This document shows, piece by piece, positions 1-36,575 of a stretch of 36,575 nucleotides of DNA. Both the position numbers and the translations under genes were made by a program. The DNA lies in the sequence record MZ375294.1; one strand, given 5' to 3'. Under the pieces are notes generated by a model that made no database searches, had not been told where the DNA came from, and saw only the letters and a program-made list of their open reading frames with translations. Position 1 is the first letter of the stretch, and every line of letters starts with the position of its first letter. The DNA comes from Escherichia phage T7.

Positions 1-143
1 TCTCACAGTGTACGGACCTAAAGTTCCCCCCATAGGGTGTACCTAAAGCCCAGCCAATCACCTAAAGTCAACCTTCGGTTGACCTTGAGGGTTCCCTAAG
101 GGTTTGTCTTTGGGTGTTACCTTGAGTGTCTCTCTGTGTCCCT
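1..143 (+). repeat. Left direct terminal repeat (T7-type terminal redundancy)
   Basis: Bases 1-143 are repeated exactly at 36433-36575; begins TCTCACAGTGTACGG as in T7 genome ends. Confidence 0.95.
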
Positions 144-7318: not shown

Positions 7319-7353
7319 TGGGACTGTTAGATGGTGAAGCCTGGGAAACATAA
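7318..7353 (+). pseudogene. Gene 1.7 remnant (most of the gene deleted)
   Basis: ATG overlaps 1.6 stop (TGATGG); [14 protein letters not shown] stops after 11 aa, followed directly by the gene 1.8 start region. Confidence 0.7.
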
Positions 7354-7364
7354 GGATAAATGTT

Positions 7365-7705
<341 letters not shown>

Positions 7706-7708
<3 letters not shown>

Positions 7709-7728
7709 TACGACTCACTATTAGGGAA
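7706..7728 (+). promoter_or_regulatory. T7 RNAP promoter phi2.5 (initiates with A)
   Basis: taatacgactcactattagggaa. Confidence 0.88.
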
Positions 7729-7773
7729 GACTCCCTCTGAGAAACCAAACGAAACCTAAAGGAGATTAACATT

Positions 7774-8472: not shown

Positions 8473-8892
8473 GTGGAACTGCGGGAGAAAATCCTTGAGC
8501 GAATCAAGGTGACTTCCTCTGGGTGTTGGGAGTGGCAGGGCGCTACGAACAATAAAGGGTACGGGCAGGTGTGGTGCAGCAATACCGGAAAGGTTGTCTA
8601 CTGTCATCGCGTAATGTCTAATGCTCCGAAAGGTTCTACCGTCCTGCACTCCTGTGATAATCCATTATGTTGTAACCCTGCACACCGTTCCATAGGAACT
8701 CCAAAAGAGAACTCCACTGACATGGTAAATAAGGGTCGCTCACACAAGGGGTATAAACTTTCAGACGAAGACGTAATGGCAATCATGGAGTCCAGCGAGT
8801 CCAATGTATCCTTAGCTCGCACCTATGGTGTCTCCCAACAGACTATTTGTGATATACGCAAAGGGAGGCGACATGGCAGGTTACGGCGCTAA
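8473..8892 (+). CDS. 2.8: Gene 2.8 HNH-endonuclease-like protein (GTG start)
   Basis: 139-aa ORF with HNH-like motif HSCDNPLCCNPAH and Cys/His pairs. Confidence 0.75.
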   Translation: MELREKILERIKVTSSGCWEWQGATNNKGYGQVWCSNTGKVVYCHRVMSNAPKGSTVLHSCDNPLCCNPAHRSIGTPKENSTDMVNKGRSHKGYKLSDEDVMAIMESSESNVSLARTYGVSQQTICDIRKGRRHGRLRR

Positions 8893-9777: not shown

Positions 9778-11647
<1,870 letters not shown>

Positions 11648-11670: not shown

Positions 11671-11709
11671 ACACCAAATTCTTTGAGTAATCAAACAGGA
11701 GAAACCATT

Positions 11710-12070: not shown

Positions 12071-14185
12071 ATGATCGTTTCTGACATCGAAGATAACGCC
12101 CTCTTAGAGAGCGTCACTAAGTTCCACTGCGGGGTTATCTACGACTACTCCACCGCTGAGTACGTAAGCTACCGTCCGAGTGACTTCGGTGCGTATCTGG
12201 ATGCGCTGGAAGCCGAGGTTGCACGAGGCGGTCTTATTGTGTTCCACAACGGTCACAAGTATGACGTTCCTGCATTGACCAAACTGGCAAAGTTGCAATT
12301 GAACCGAGAGTTCCACCTTCCTCGTGAGAACTGTATTGACACCCTTGTGTTGTCACGTTTGATTCATTCCAACCTCAAGGACACCGATATGGGTCTTCTG
12401 CGTTCCGGCAAGTTGCCCGGAAAACGCTTTGGGTCTCACGCTTTGGAGGCGTGGGGTTATCGCTTAGGCGAGATGAAGGGTGAATACAAAGACGACTTTA
12501 AGCGTATGCTTGAAGAGCAGGGTGAAGAATACGTTGACGGAATGGAGTGGTGGAACTTCAACGAAGAGATGATGGACTATAACGTTCAGGACGTTGTGGT
12601 AACTAAAGCTCTCCTTGAGAAGCTACTCTCTGACAAACATTACTTCCCTCCTGAGATTGACTTTACGGACGTAGGATACACTACGTTCTGGTCAGAATCC
12701 CTTGAGGCCGTTGACATTGAACATCGTGCTGCATGGCTGCTCGCTAAACAAGAGCGCAACGGGTTCCCGTTTGACACAAAAGCAATCGAAGAGTTGTACG
12801 TAGAGTTAGCTGCTCGCCGCTCTGAGTTGCTCCGTAAATTGACCGAAACGTTCGGCTCGTGGTATCAGCCTAAAGGTGGCACTGAGATGTTCTGCCATCC
12901 GCGAACAGGTAAGCCACTACCTAAATACCCTCGCATTAAGACACCTAAAGTTGGTGGTATCTTTAAGAAGCCTAAGAACAAGGCACAGCGAGAAGGCCGT
13001 GAGCCTTGCGAACTTGATACCCGCGAGTACGTTGCTGGTGCTCCTTACACCCCAGTTGAACATGTTGTGTTTAACCCTTCGTCTCGTGACCACATTCAGA
13101 AGAAACTCCAAGAGGCTGGGTGGGTCCCGACCAAGTACACCGATAAGGGTGCTCCTGTGGTGGACGATGAGGTACTCGAAGGAGTACGTGTAGATGACCC
13201 TGAGAAGCAAGCCGCTATCGACCTCATTAAAGAGTACTTGATGATTCAGAAGCGAATCGGACAGTCTGCTGAGGGAGACACAGCATGGCTTCGTTATGTT
13301 GCTGAGGATGGTAAGATTCATGGTTCTGTTAACCCTAATGGAGCAGTTACGGGTCGTGCGACCCATGCGTTCCCAAACCTTGCGCAAATTCCGGGTGTAC
13401 GTTCTCCTTATGGAGAGCAGTGTCGCGCTGCTTTTGGCGCTGAGCACCATTTGGATGGGATAACTGGTAAGCCTTGGGTTCAGGCTGGCATCGACGCATC
13501 CGGTCTTGAGCTACGCTGCTTGGCTCACTTCATGGCTCGCTTTGATAACGGCGAGTACGCTCACGAGATTCTTAACGGCGACATCCACACTAAGAACCAG
13601 ATAGCTGCTGAACTACCTACCCGAGATAACGCTAAGACGTTCATCTATGGGTTCCTCTATGGTGCTGGTGATGAGAAGATTGGACAGATTGTTGGTGCTG
13701 GTAAAGAGCGCGGTAAGGAACTCAAGAAGAAATTCCTTGAGAACACCCCCGCGATTGCAGCACTCCGCGAGTCTATCCAACAGACACTTGTCGAGTCCTC
13801 TCAATGGGTAGCTGGTGAGCAACAAGTCAAGTGGAAACGCCGCTGGATTAAAGGTCTGGATGGTCGTAAGGTACACGTTCGTAGTCCTCACGCTGCCTTG
13901 AATACCCTACTGCAATCTGCTGGTGCTCTCATCTGCAAACTGTGGATTATCAAGACCGAAGAGATGCTCGTAGAGAAAGGCTTGAAGCATGGCTGGGATG
14001 GGGACTTTGCGTACATGGCATGGGTACATGATGAAATCCAAGTAGGCTGCCGTACCGAAGAGATTGCTCAGGTGGTCATTGAGACCGCACAAGAAGCGAT
14101 GCGCTGGGTTGGAGACCACTGGAACTTCCGGTGTCTTCTGGATACCGAAGGTAAGATGGGTCCTAATTGGGCGATTTGCCACTGA
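12071..14185 (+). CDS. 5: T7 DNA polymerase (gene 5), family A polymerase with 3'-5' exonuclease
   Basis: 704-aa [29 protein letters not shown]...; family A polymerase-type palm residues near the C-terminus. Confidence 0.97.
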
Positions 14186-14230
14186 TACAGGAGGCTACTC
14201 CAAAGGCATAAAACTATAGGAGAAATTATT

Positions 14231-14530
14231 ATGGCTATGACAAAGAAATTTAAAGTGTCCTTCGACGTTACCGCAAAGATGTCGTCTGACGTTCAGGCAA
14301 TCTTAGAGAAAGATATGCTGCATCTATGTAAGCAGGTCGGCTCAGGTGCGATTGTCCCCAATGGTAAACAGAAGGAAATGATTGTCCAGTTCCTGACACA
14401 CGGTATGGAAGGATTGATGACATTCGTAGTACGTACATCATTTCGTGAGGCCATTAAGGACATGCACGAAGAGTATGCAGATAAGGACTCTTTCAAACAA
14501 TCTCCTGCAACAGTACGGGAGGTGTTCTGA
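14231..14530 (+). CDS. 5.5: Gene 5.5 protein (H-NS-binding)
   Basis: 99-aa ORF MAMTKKFKVSFDVTAKMSSDVQAILEKDMLH... Confidence 0.85.
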   Translation: MAMTKKFKVSFDVTAKMSSDVQAILEKDMLHLCKQVGSGAIVPNGKQKEMIVQFLTHGMEGLMTFVVRTSFREAIKDMHEEYADKDSFKQSPATVREVF

Positions 14531-16243: not shown

Positions 16244-16510
16244 ATGTGTTTCTCACCGAAAATTAAAACTCCGAAGATGGATACCAATCAGATTCGAGCC
16301 GTTGAGCCAGCGCCTCTGACCCAAGAAGTGTCAAGCGTGGAGTTCGGTGGGTCTTCTGATGAGACGGATACCGAGGGCACCGAAGTGTCTGGACGCAAAG
16401 GCCTCAAGGTCGAACGTGATGATTCCGTAGCGAAGTCTAAAGCCAGCGGCAATGGCTCCGCTCGTATGAAATCTTCCATCCGTAAGTCCGCATTTGGAGG
16501 TAAGAAGTGA
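16244..16510 (+). CDS. 6.7: Gene 6.7 virion protein
   Basis: 88-aa ORF MCFSPKIKTPKMDTNQIRAVEPAPLTQEVSS... Confidence 0.8.
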   Translation: MCFSPKIKTPKMDTNQIRAVEPAPLTQEVSSVEFGGSSDETDTEGTEVSGRKGLKVERDDSVAKSKASGNGSARMKSSIRKSAFGGKK

Positions 16511-16911
16511 TGTCTGAGTTCACATGTGTGGAGGCTAAGAGTCGCTTCCGTGCAATCCGGTGGACTGTGGAACACCTTGGGTTGCCTAAAGGATTCGAAG
16601 GACACTTTGTGGGCTACAGCCTCTACGTAGACGAAGTGATGGACATGTCTGGTTGCCGTGAAGAGTACATTCTGGACTCTACCGGAAAACATGTAGCGTA
16701 CTTCGCGTGGTGCGTAAGCTGTGACATTCACCACAAAGGAGACATTCTGGATGTAACGTCCGTTGTCATTAATCCTGAGACAGACTCTAAGGGCTTACAG
16801 CGATTCCTAGCGAAACGCTTTAAGTACCTTGCGGAACTCCACGATTGCGATTGGGTGTCTCGTTGTAAGCATGAAGGCGAGACAATGCGTGTATACTTTA
16901 AGGAGGTATAA
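16510..16911 (+). CDS. 7: Gene 7 virion/host-range protein
   Basis: 133-aa ORF MSEFTCVEAKSRFRAIRWTVEHLGLPKGFEGHF... Confidence 0.8.
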   Translation: MSEFTCVEAKSRFRAIRWTVEHLGLPKGFEGHFVGYSLYVDEVMDMSGCREEYILDSTGKHVAYFAWCVSCDIHHKGDILDVTSVVINPETDSKGLQRFLAKRFKYLAELHDCDWVSRCKHEGETMRVYFKEV

Positions 16912-18960: not shown

Positions 18961-19884
18961 ATGGCTGAATCTAATGCAGACGTATATGCATCTTTTGGCG
19001 TGAACTCCGCTGTGATGTCTGGTGGTTCCGTTGAGGAACATGAGCAGAACATGCTGGCTCTTGATGTTGCTGCCCGTGATGGCGATGATGCAATCGAGTT
19101 AGCGTCAGACGAAGTGGAAACAGAACGTGACCTGTATGACAACTCTGACCCGTTCGGTCAAGAGGATGACGAAGGCCGCATTCAGGTTCGTATCGGTGAT
19201 GGCTCTGAGCCGACCGATGTGGACACTGGAGAAGAAGGCGTTGAGGGCACCGAAGGTTCCGAAGAGTTTACCCCACTGGGCGAGACTCCAGAAGAACTGG
19301 TAGCTGCCTCTGAGCAACTTGGTGAGCACGAAGAGGGCTTCCAAGAGATGATTAACATTGCTGCTGAGCGTGGCATGAGTGTCGAGACCATTGAGGCTAT
19401 CCAGCGTGAGTACGAGGAGAACGAAGAGTTGTCCGCCGAGTCCTACGCTAAGCTGGCTGAAATTGGCTACACGAAGGCTTTCATTGACTCGTATATCCGT
19501 GGTCAAGAAGCTCTGGTGGAGCAGTACGTAAACAGTGTCATTGAGTACGCTGGTGGTCGTGAACGTTTTGATGCACTGTATAACCGCCTTGAGACGCACA
19601 ACCCTGAGGCTGCACAGTCGCTGGATAATGCGTTGACCAATCGTGACTTAGCGACCGTTAAGGCTATCATCAACTTGGCTGGTGAGTCTCGCGCTAAGGC
19701 GTTCGGTCGTAAGCCAACTCGTAGTGTGACTAATCGTGCTATTCCGGCTAAACCTCAGGCTACCAAGCGTGAAGGCTTTGCGGACCGTAGCGAGATGATT
19801 AAAGCTATGAGTGACCCTCGGTATCGCACAGATGCCAACTATCGTCGTCAAGTCGAACAGAAAGTAATCGATTCGAACTTCTGA
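18961..19884 (+). CDS. 9: Capsid assembly (scaffolding) protein gp9
   Basis: 307-aa acidic ORF MAESNADVYASFGVNSAVMSGGSVEEHEQNMLALDV... Confidence 0.95.
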   Translation: MAESNADVYASFGVNSAVMSGGSVEEHEQNMLALDVAARDGDDAIELASDEVETERDLYDNSDPFGQEDDEGRIQVRIGDGSEPTDVDTGEEGVEGTEGSEEFTPLGETPEELVAASEQLGEHEEGFQEMINIAAERGMSVETIEAIQREYEENEELSAESYAKLAEIGYTKAFIDSYIRGQEALVEQYVNSVIEYAGGRERFDALYNRLETHNPEAAQSLDNALTNRDLATVKAIINLAGESRAKAFGRKPTRSVTNRAIPAKPQATKREGFADRSEMIKAMSDPRYRTDANYRRQVEQKVIDSNF

Positions 19885-19897
19885 TAGACTTCGAAAT

Positions 19898-19920
19898 TAA
19901 TACGACTCACTATATGGAGA
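19898..19920 (+). promoter_or_regulatory. T7 RNAP promoter phi10 with T instead of G at +1
   Basis: taatacgactcacTATATGGAGA; followed by the s10 leader and RBS aagaaggagatatacatATG. Confidence 0.85.
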
Positions 19921-19977
19921 CCACAACGGTTTCCCTCTAGAAATAATTTTGTTTAACTTTAAGAAGGAGATATACAT

Positions 19978-21015
19978 ATGGCTAGCATGACTGGTGGACA
20001 GCAAATGGGTACTAACCAAGGTAAAGGTGTAGTTGCTGCTGGAGATAAACTGGCGTTGTTCTTGAAGGTATTTGGCGGTGAAGTCCTGACTGCGTTCGCT
20101 CGTACCTCCGTGACCACTTCTCGCCACATGGTACGTTCCATCTCCAGCGGTAAATCCGCTCAGTTCCCTGTTCTGGGTCGCACTCAGGCAGCGTATCTGG
20201 CTCCGGGCGAGAACCTCGACGATAAACGTAAGGACATCAAACACACCGAGAAGGTAATCACCATTGACGGTCTCCTGACGGCTGACGTTCTGATTTATGA
20301 TATTGAGGACGCGATGAACCACTACGACGTTCGCTCTGAGTATACCTCTCAGTTGGGTGAATCTCTGGCGATGGCTGCGGATGGTGCGGTTCTGGCTGAG
20401 ATTGCCGGTCTGTGTAACGTGGAAAGCAAATATAATGAGAACATCGAGGGCTTAGGTACTGCTACCGTAATTGAGACCACTCAGAACAAGGCCGCACTTA
20501 CCGACCAAGTTGCGCTGGGTAAGGAGATTATTGCGGCTCTGACTAAGGCTCGTGCGGCTCTGACCAAGAACTATGTTCCGGCTGCTGACCGTGTGTTCTA
20601 CTGTGACCCAGATAGCTACTCTGCGATTCTGGCAGCACTGATGCCGAACGCAGCAAACTACGCTGCTCTGATTGACCCTGAGAAGGGTTCTATCCGCAAC
20701 GTTATGGGCTTTGAGGTTGTAGAAGTTCCGCACCTCACCGCTGGTGGTGCTGGTACCGCTCGTGAGGGCACTACTGGTCAGAAGCACGTCTTCCCTGCCA
20801 ATAAAGGTGAGGGTAATGTCAAGGTTGCTAAGGACAACGTTATCGGCCTGTTCATGCACCGCTCTGCGGTAGGTACTGTTAAGCTGCGTGACTTGGCTCT
20901 GGAGCGCGCTCGCCGTGCTACCTTCCAAGCGGACCAGATTATCGCTAAGTACGCAATGGGCCACGGTGGTCTTCGCCCAGAAGCTGCTGGTGCAGTGGTT
21001 TTCAAAGTGGAGTAA
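19978..21015 (+). CDS. 10A: Major capsid protein gp10A
   Basis: 345-aa ORF MASMTGGQQMGTNQGKGVVAAGDKLALF... ending VVFKVE. Confidence 0.97.
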   Translation: MASMTGGQQMGTNQGKGVVAAGDKLALFLKVFGGEVLTAFARTSVTTSRHMVRSISSGKSAQFPVLGRTQAAYLAPGENLDDKRKDIKHTEKVITIDGLLTADVLIYDIEDAMNHYDVRSEYTSQLGESLAMAADGAVLAEIAGLCNVESKYNENIEGLGTATVIETTQNKAALTDQVALGKEIIAALTKARAALTKNYVPAADRVFYCDPDSYSAILAALMPNAANYAALIDPEKGSIRNVMGFEVVEVPHLTAGGAGTAREGTTGQKHVFPANKGEGNVKVAKDNVIGLFMHRSAVGTVKLRDLALERARRATFQADQIIAKYAMGHGGLRPEAAGAVVFKVE

Positions 21016-34380: not shown

Positions 34381-36141
34381 GTGTCTACTCAATCCAATCG
34401 TAATGCGCTCGTAGTGGCGCAACTGAAAGGAGACTTCGTGGCGTTCCTATTCGTCTTATGGAAGGCGCTACACCTACCGGTGCCCACTAAGTGTCAGATT
34501 GACATGGCTAAGGTGCTGGCGAATGGAGACAACAAGAAGTTCATCTTACAGGCTTTCCGTGGTATCGGTAAGTCGTTCATCACATGTGCGTTCGTTGTGT
34601 GGTCCTTATGGAGAGACCCTCAGTTGAAGATACTTATCGTATCAGCCTCTAAGGAGCGTGCAGACGCTAACTCCATCTTTATTAAGAACATCATTGACCT
34701 GCTGCCATTCCTATCTGAGTTAAAGCCAAGACCCGGACAGCGTGACTCGGTAATCAGCTTTGATGTAGGCCCAGCCAATCCTGACCACTCTCCTAGTGTG
34801 AAATCAGTAGGTATCACTGGTCAGTTAACTGGTAGCCGTGCTGACATTATCATTGCGGATGACGTTGAGATTCCGTCTAACAGCGCAACTATGGGTGCCC
34901 GTGAGAAGCTATGGACTCTGGTTCAGGAGTTCGCTGCGTTACTTAAACCGCTGCCTTCCTCTCGCGTTATCTACCTTGGTACACCTCAGACAGAGATGAC
35001 TCTCTATAAGGAACTTGAGGATAACCGTGGGTACACAACCATTATCTGGCCTGCTCTGTACCCAAGGACACGTGAAGAGAACCTCTATTACTCACAGCGT
35101 CTTGCTCCTATGTTACGCGCTGAGTACGATGAGAACCCTGAGGCACTTGCTGGGACTCCAACAGACCCAGTGCGCTTTGACCGTGATGACCTGCGCGAGC
35201 GTGAGTTGGAATACGGTAAGGCTGGCTTTACGCTACAGTTCATGCTTAACCCTAACCTTAGTGATGCCGAGAAGTACCCGCTGAGGCTTCGTGACGCTAT
35301 CGTAGCGGCCTTAGACTTAGAGAAGGCCCCAATGCATTACCAGTGGCTTCCGAACCGTCAGAACATCATTGAGGACCTTCCTAACGTTGGCCTTAAGGGT
35401 GATGACCTGCATACGTACCACGATTGTTCCAACAACTCAGGTCAGTACCAACAGAAGATTCTGGTCATTGACCCTAGTGGTCGCGGTAAGGACGAAACAG
35501 GTTACGCTGTGCTGTACACACTGAACGGTTACATCTACCTTATGGAAGCTGGAGGTTTCCGTGATGGCTACTCCGATAAGACCCTTGAGTTACTCGCTAA
35601 GAAGGCAAAGCAATGGGGAGTCCAGACGGTTGTCTACGAGAGTAACTTCGGTGACGGTATGTTCGGTAAGGTATTCAGTCCTATCCTTCTTAAACACCAC
35701 AACTGTGCGATGGAAGAGATTCGTGCCCGTGGTATGAAAGAGATGCGTATTTGCGATACCCTTGAGCCAGTCATGCAGACTCACCGCCTTGTAATTCGTG
35801 ATGAGGTCATTAGGGCCGACTACCAGTCCGCTCGTGACGTAGACGGTAAGCATGACGTTAAGTACTCGTTGTTCTACCAGATGACCCGTATCACTCGTGA
35901 GAAAGGCGCTCTGGCTCATGATGACCGATTGGATGCCCTTGCGTTAGGCATTGAGTATCTCCGTGAGTCCATGCAGTTGGATTCCGTTAAGGTCGAGGGT
36001 GAAGTACTTGCTGACTTCCTTGAGGAACACATGATGCGTCCTACGGTTGCTGCTACGCATATCATTGAGATGTCTGTGGGAGGAGTTGATGTGTACTCTG
36101 AGGACGATGAGGGTTACGGTACGTCTTTCATTGAGTGGTGA
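34381..36141 (+). CDS. 19: Terminase large subunit gp19 (GTG start in the track)
   Basis: 586-aa ORF; Walker A-like FRGIGKSF; acidic nuclease-domain residues. Confidence 0.95.
35027..35284 (+). CDS. 19.2: Gene 19.2, ORF in an alternative frame inside gene 19
   Basis: Track ORF 35015-35284 ends where annotated T7 gene 19.2 would end; expression unverified. Confidence 0.3.
35564..35737 (+). CDS. 19.3: Gene 19.3, ORF in an alternative frame inside gene 19
   Basis: 57-aa [25 protein letters not shown]... at the position of annotated T7 gene 19.3; expression unverified. Confidence 0.3.
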
Positions 36142-36222: not shown

Positions 36223-36245
36223 TAATACGACTCACTATAGGGAGA
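36223..36245 (+). promoter_or_regulatory. T7 RNAP promoter phiOR (replication-associated, right end)
   Basis: taatacgactcactatagggaga. Confidence 0.9.
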
Positions 36246-36310
36246 GGAGGGACGAAAGGTTACTATATAGATACTGAATGAATACTTATAGAGTGCATAA
36301 AGTATGCATA

Positions 36311-36395
36311 ATGGAGTTCCTATAGTGACCTCTAAGAATGGTGATTATATTGTATTAGTATCACCTTAACTTAAGGGCCTATGGAGTTCCTATAG
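36311..36395 (+). repeat. Two 15-bp direct repeats atggagttcctatag (36311-36325 and 36381-36395) flanking the right-end deletion junction
   Basis: Exact 15-bp copies 70 bp apart between phiOR and the right terminal repeat. Confidence 0.8.
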
Positions 36396-36432
36396 GGTCC
36401 TTTAAAATATACCATAAAAATCTGAGTGACTA

Positions 36433-36575
36433 TCTCACAGTGTACGGACCTAAAGTTCCCCCCATAGGGTGTACCTAAAGCCCAGCCAATCACCTAAAGT
36501 CAACCTTCGGTTGACCTTGAGGGTTCCCTAAGGGTTTGTCTTTGGGTGTTACCTTGAGTGTCTCTCTGTGTCCCT
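36433..36575 (+). repeat. Right direct terminal repeat
   Basis: Exact copy of bases 1-143. Confidence 0.95.

Follow-up and report, generated by a model that had tools for sequence, protein, structure and literature searches.

Classical deletion mutants of bacteriophage T7, reportedly from the Studier and Masker laboratories, are said to include spontaneous deletions between short direct repeats. The stretch of DNA analyzed here (the window, 36,575 bp at full length) resembles these mutants in having lost dispensable DNA at a short sequence identity, but, unlike in the classical repeat deletions, the identity at its right-end deletion is limited to 3 bp, and a pair of 15-bp repeats in the same region lies off the junction, with both copies surviving. 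A second related system is the set of T7 mutants produced by CRISPR/Cas9 genome reduction (CiPGr; Yuan, Shi, Jiang, Ma, Nucleic Acids Res 2022; GenBank MZ375233-MZ375293 and OL9647xx), which have the same parent as the window and share with it gene deletions, substitutions, and a terminal repeat of 143 bp. In that experiment, T7 went through as many as 300 passages on cells with Cas9 and a spacer library with 2 x 50 bp donors, the library holding cassettes for non-essential genes and aiming at whole-gene deletion, and SOAPdenovo was used for the de novo short-read assembly of the clones (PMC9825161). The authors list three undesigned "large fragment" losses, gp0.3-0.6, gp4.3-4.7, and gp19.5, and ascribe some of the large-fragment losses to CRISPR-escape mutation (PMC9825161). 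A third point of comparison is templated mutation or gene conversion, including quasi-palindrome correction, which produces clustered changes toward a nearby similar sequence, as seen in the left copy of the 15-bp pair (copy 1). Compared to typical templated conversion, the changes in copy 1, as given by a published SOAPdenovo assembly, are stepwise and the implied patches very short.

The window is a complete, laboratory-derived T7 genome of the CiPGr lineage and not a natural phage. Aligned to the T7 reference (NC_001604) by megablast, it splits into ten collinear blocks of 99.8-100% identity, and the missing DNA adds up to 3362 bp, exactly the difference between 39937 and 36575. The nearest records are entries named "Mutant Escherichia phage T7 clone T7_280L/290L/300L/300S" (MZ3752xx). 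Exact deletions of genes 1.4, 4.7, 5.3, and 7.7 are common to the window and the CiPGr clones; the deletions 7608-7763, 13927-14334, 16483-16820, and 19848-20216, together with many substitutions and an 18-bp deletion in the terminal repeat, recur in T7_280L, T7_300S, or T7_250S; and the loss in genes 0.4-0.6 is identical to that of T7_280L. Besides the right-end deletion, the window carries eight other deletions and the shortened terminal repeat. A preliminary description of this DNA had treated the window without recognizing it as a product of engineering and experimental evolution, for which the loss of the gp19.5 region had already been published. The right-end feature is thus a known kind of laboratory deletion, the dispensability of the gp19.5 region having been reported before, and its discovery value is small, as a by-product of a published genome-reduction experiment. 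What is unreported is a small detail, namely three directional substitutions that turn an old imperfect repeat into an exact one. In the phage collection, no record has the exact right-end junction, the triple substitution, or ≥99% identity across 36280-36440. As to genome size, T7_300L is given as 36,937 bp and as the "smallest T7 genome" in PMC9825161, and its deposited record, MZ375291, has 37,262 bp; several deposited clones, and the window with its 36,575 bp, fall below 36,937 bp.

We put at roughly 80% the probability of a joint explanation in which the right end is a scar of the CiPGr experiment, comprising an undesigned deletion joined at AGG, templated changes in copy 1, and a repeat pair without required function. 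The elements on which this explanation bears are as follows, in window coordinates.

34381..36141, plus strand: gene 19, terminase large subunit, 586 aa, intact (from the open reading frame list; collinear with reference 37370-39130)
36223..36245, plus strand: phiOR, T7 RNA polymerase promoter TAATACGACTCACTATAGGGAGA, +1 at 36240, identical to the reference
36311..36335, plus strand: repeat copy 1, with the exact 15-mer at 36311-36325 and a 25-nt similarity to copy 2 (22/25)
36340..36365, no strand: native short inverted repeat GGTGAT...ATCACC, read from the sequence and kept between copy 1 and the junction
36374..36376, no strand: deletion junction with AGG microhomology (reference 39363-39365 and 39719-39721)
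36377..36432, plus strand: 56 bp of unique T7 DNA with copy 2, adjoining the right terminal repeat (reference 39722-39777)
36381..36405, plus strand: repeat copy 2, with the exact 15-mer at 36381-36395; native T7 sequence, reference 39726-39740, unchanged
36433..36575, plus strand: right terminal repeat, 143 bp, identical to window 1-143

Compared to the wild-type T7 right end (NC_001604 39131-39937), the window has the same phiOR (annotated at 39229 in NC_001604) and the same order of elements; the 126 bp downstream of the phiOR start are the same save for 3 substitutions, and the 56 bp adjoining the terminal repeat are the same as well. The wild type, in contrast, has a further 356 bp, gene 19.5 included, that the window lacks, a terminal repeat of 160 instead of 143 bp, and an unconverted copy 1 where that of the window is converted to the sequence of copy 2. 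Gene 19, with its stop at 36141, is the final gene remaining before the right end, and the open reading frame list holds no 19.5-like or notable junction-spanning reading frame in the region, only trivial ones of 20-40 aa. The distance of about 187 bp between phiOR and the terminal repeat given in the preliminary description is correct, as 36246-36432 spans 187 bp and the repeat starts at 36433. A single-strand DNA fold of this spacer region is not unusual (z = -0.6), with the GGTGAT...ATCACC arms pairing. The loop of this inverted repeat carries the substitution G39347A in clones 160S, 250S, 290L, 300L, and 300S, which gives the base found in 7/7 natural T7 relatives; the window keeps G.

The right-end deletion measures 356 bp (reference 39363-39718 by megablast against NC_001604), with a placement that is ambiguous by 3 bp: the left flank runs up to window 36376 (reference 39365) and the right flank starts at window 36374 (reference 39719), AGG being the overlap. 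This agrees with the earlier proposal that canonical T7 is longer here by about 350 bp including gene 19.5, and the region is not full length; the junction likewise lies where it had been placed, between ttaagg and gcctatgg near 36376/36377. Gene 19.5 (reference 39389-39538) falls inside the gap and does not occur between phiOR and the terminal repeat. The gap also takes the ribosome-binding site of gene 19.5, four short repeats of the CCTAAAG/CCTAAGG type, and, by eye, an imperfectly palindromic stretch at reference ~39580-39600. We take the gap region to be the one to which a hairpin intermediate was reportedly mapped by Chung, Nardone and Hinkle (1990).

The nine deletions of the window differ in their junctions. 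Those of genes 1.4, 4.7, 5.3, and 7.7 start exactly at the start codon and are free of overlap, and therefore look designed. The remaining five, the right-end one included, have junction overlaps of 3-9 bp; besides the right-end deletion, these are the following.

Junction 1289-1297: deletion of 676 bp, genes 0.4-0.6, imperfect 9-bp overlap
Junction 7342-7348: deletion of 536 bp, gene 1.7, 7-bp overlap
Junction 9867-9869: deletion of 292 bp, gene 3.8, 3-bp overlap
Junction 11674-11676: deletion of 198 bp, gene 4.3, 3-bp overlap

What looks like a substitution at reference 1985 results from the alignment across the junction of the 676-bp deletion.

That the library contained cassettes for non-essential genes, and that four other deletions in the window are exact gene deletions, would be in keeping with the 356-bp deletion being itself a designed edit, introduced from a cassette with a 2 x 50 bp donor through homologous recombination. 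We regard this as improbable, since the boundaries 39363/39718 do not match those of gene 19.5 and the length is not divisible by three, the authors themselves class the gp19.5 loss as undesigned (PMC9825161), and the sister clones show varied undesigned deletions in the region. All ten sister clones examined carry a deletion of 189 bp between 9-bp repeats (ATAGAGTCA); several also have a small replacement at 39378-39395, and in several the short repeats carry additional losses of 8-23 bp. Their total right-end loss ranges from 189 to 227 bp and is exceeded in every case by the 356 bp of the window, where, unlike after the smaller deletions of the sister clones, all right-side CCTAAAG-type repeats are gone. 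Judged by its boundaries and overlap, the 356-bp deletion does not appear to be a designed cassette edit and probably formed instead by joining or slippage at the 3-bp AGG microhomology. It probably arose on top of earlier nested deletions like those of the sister clones: because the gap spans all of the sister-clone deletions, the template had probably been shortened before and this deletion was the final event. Its retention could be explained by the removal of dispensable DNA targeted by Cas9.

Two exact copies of a 15-mer flanking the junction had also been described, and we find ATGGAGTTCCTATAG at 36311-36325 and 36381-36395, 70 bp apart, with no other mismatch-free copy in the window. 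For direct repeats of an exact 15-mer spaced within 500 bp, the expectation is ~0.017 per genome, and 5 of 300 block shuffles contained one, which argues that the pair is not a product of chance. The pair was, however, not left behind by the deletion, as the preliminary description had it: its exactness is due to three substitutions in copy 1 that are separate from the deletion. A check for the first copy in the reference gives a mixed outcome: a related site does exist there (ATGGTGTACCTAGAG at 39300-39314), but it matches copy 2 at only 12/15 positions, and at 19/25 over the wider segment. The same imperfect pair (12/15) is found in the wild-type parent of the lineage, and most of the clone series keeps the ATGGTGTACCTAGAG form of copy 1. 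Each of the three substitutions, T39304A (window 36315), A39307T (36318), and G39312T (36323), yields the base of copy 2, raising the similarity of the two copies, which have the same orientation, from 19/25 to 22/25 over 25 nt. One of them, G39312T, occurs alone in T7_280L, whereas T39304A and A39307T are unique to the window when compared to the sister clones.

The exact pair is absent from all seven natural T7 relatives compared, all of which keep gene 19.5, and these relatives vary inside both copies (39312 is A in place of the T7 G, and 39738 is G in place of the T7 T). Likewise, a scan of IMG/VR gave no match for the 22-mer hybrid of the converted copy 1 or for the deletion junction, a degenerate 26-mer over the converted copy 1 was not found in the metagenome collection, and the independently evolved T7 lines AY264776 and AY264778 have no changes in copy 1.

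We considered whether the deletion was mediated by the flanking 15-mers and rejected this, as the junction lies outside the repeats, 51 bp to the right of copy 1 and 4 bp to the left of copy 2, and both copies remain. This position of the junction and the survival of both copies indicate that the repeats were not recombination substrates. As G39312T and the phiOR core together make up a full inverted repeat of 10 bp, we also considered this substitution as the origin of a reverse-oriented T7 promoter and rejected this, since by eye the upstream recognition positions are off consensus.

A de novo short-read assembly by SOAPdenovo, in a series where the length of T7_300L differs between paper and GenBank, raises the question of whether the exact repeat is an artefact of assembly or consensus calling. 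This is highly improbable: a 15-bp repeat is shorter than the usual assembly k-mers, so that its collapse is unlikely, and one of the three substitutions is present independently in the record of T7_280L. The flanks are otherwise identical to T7.

How the three substitutions arose can be narrowed down from their direction and distribution. If three substitutions fell freely within the 15-mer, the chance that all of them give the base of copy 2 would be ~8e-5. Because T7_280L has G39312T alone, at least two steps or events are needed, and a single simultaneous event or a single conversion cannot explain all three. Copy 1 may have been corrected from copy 2 by short-patch gene conversion or by template switching between the two 25-nt segments, in at least two steps of which G39312T would be the first. 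The conversion patches implied by this are very short (<8 nt).

Alternatively, the three substitutions could be independent point mutations under selection, either as Cas9 escape or as adaptation of the phiOR leader or origin, with their identity to copy 2 coincidental or convergent; we hold this to be possible, if doubtful. G39312T is located two bases from CCT, a minus-strand NGG PAM (reference 39308-39310), and thus at a seed position, and a deletion of 39307-39316 in T7_300S takes out this candidate PAM. A comparable cluster of three substitutions in gene 2.8 sits at a protospacer-like site with an AGG PAM and was likewise built up stepwise, and Cas9 can speed evolution in spacer and PAM regions (PMC9825161). 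Moreover, late clones carry other changes within 39288-39347 (A39300C, a 10-bp deletion together with C39321T, G39347A, and an inserted A), and this variety among sister clones also fits local selection or relaxed constraint. On the other hand, the library was aimed at genes (PMC9825161), whereas the copy-1 site is intergenic; T39304A and A39307T lie outside the putative protospacer and PAM; and selection for escape or leader function would have to meet the same ~8e-5 chance of matching copy 2 at all three positions.

Similar homogenizing changes are found elsewhere in the lineage. At the left end, T235A (window 218), common to the window, T7_280L, and T7_300S, changes the region 196-228 (reference 213-245) from CCTAAAGCCTACACC to CCTAAAGCCAACACC and makes two neighboring 13-bp units of the left-end short repeats identical over 20 nt. 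In T7_280L (MZ375287, 36790-36801) and also in clones 180S, 210S, and 270S, the 18 bp of reference 39378-39395 are replaced by TAT; this replacement takes out the start codon of gene 19.5 together with its ribosome-binding site, yields a second exact CATAAAGTATGC, the original copy of which lies about 85-86 bp upstream in T7_280L, and looks like a template-switch event. Further, C5831T and A405G shift promoters toward sequences found in other promoters. The recurrence of this homogenizing signature favors short-patch templated correction, and short-patch templated repair is our best guess for the changes in copy 1. If so, the repeat-homogenizing substitutions suggest that such repair has a part in how T7 evolves when it is cut repeatedly by Cas9.

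The 15-mer pair appears to have no required function. In T7_300S, a 10-bp deletion destroys copy 1, and this clone was still isolated as plaque-forming, which argues against a need for copy 1. The right-end spacing and repeats could bear on packaging, as the preliminary description had proposed, and an effect of their alteration is plausible. T7 packaging is described as dependent on two signals at the concatemer junction, PacB and PacC, and a transposon-style map classes most T7 genome-end loci as non-essential. The smallest T7 mutant suffers a large loss of burst size, which its authors ascribe to gene loss in general (PMC9825161). The window keeps phiOR, the 56 bp of unique DNA by the terminal repeat, and the terminal repeat itself.

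Along these lines, the 15-mer might be part of a candidate recognition element for concatemer processing and packaging (e.g., part of pacB), of which selection would have made a second copy in steps, compensating for the deleted DNA. In that case, the second copy would partly compensate for the lost right-end short repeats and palindromic stretch. Copy 2 does lie near the right terminal repeat, 38-52 bp to its left, the segment that holds it is the only unique right-end DNA present in every clone examined, and all three changes in copy 1 go toward copy 2. However, G39312T precedes the deletion, being present in T7_280L, which lacks the 356-bp deletion, and T7_300S forms plaques without copy 1, while the natural relatives vary in both copies. 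We therefore find a selected duplication of a cis-acting element quite unlikely. Under the preferred reading of a CiPGr scar, the window is of modest use as a limit on right-end requirements: T7 is plaque-forming with ~56 bp of unique DNA between the deletion and the right terminal repeat, and plaques form without the right-side CCTAAAG-type repeats or the palindromic stretch at 39580-39600, which narrows the cis-acting need at this end.

The terminal repeats themselves (1-143 and 36433-36575) have 143 instead of 160 bp, owing to an 18-bp deletion between GGGTT repeats (reference 99-116), and contain one extra C (after reference 25) and G37T; the deletion, the extra C, and G37T are common to most late clones. 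The first base past the left terminal repeat, window 144 (reference 161), is changed from A to C, turning ATCTGTT into CTCTGTT; the same change is seen in T7_300S, and T7_280L has an inserted C there instead. We take ATCTGTT to be the conserved seven-base motif of the class II pause/terminator that T7 RNA polymerase meets at the concatemer junction. A preprint describes a strictly conserved seven-base class II motif, the sequence of which is absent there. A T7 essentiality map marks positions 142 and 162 as essential.

Substitutions at window 388, 5139, 18865, and 19915 fall on key positions of T7 promoters. Two of them, phiOL +1 A>G and phi1.1A -17 C>T, go toward the consensus; phi9 -11 G>A makes this position the same as in phiOL, and phi10 +1 G>T goes away from the consensus. 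Taken together, the promoter substitutions suggest regulatory re-tuning or inter-promoter conversion in the reduced genome.

The cluster in gene 2.8 comprises window positions 8681, 8687, and 8688 (reference 10065, 10071, and 10072), at the protospacer-like site with its AGG PAM. A T>G and A>T pair is found in all clones compared and perfects the inverted repeat GTTCC-ATA-GGAAC, and an A>C change is found only in the window; the cluster looks like stepwise Cas9 escape. Its distance to the reverse complement of TGGAGTTCCTAT, the sequence at the core of the 15-mer found at the right end, is 4 nt. As TGGAGTTCCTAT thus recurs reversed in gene 2.8 beside this second substitution cluster, we considered off-target cutting of the right end by a gene 2.8 spacer and rejected it, since the changes in copy 1 would raise the similarity to such a spacer.
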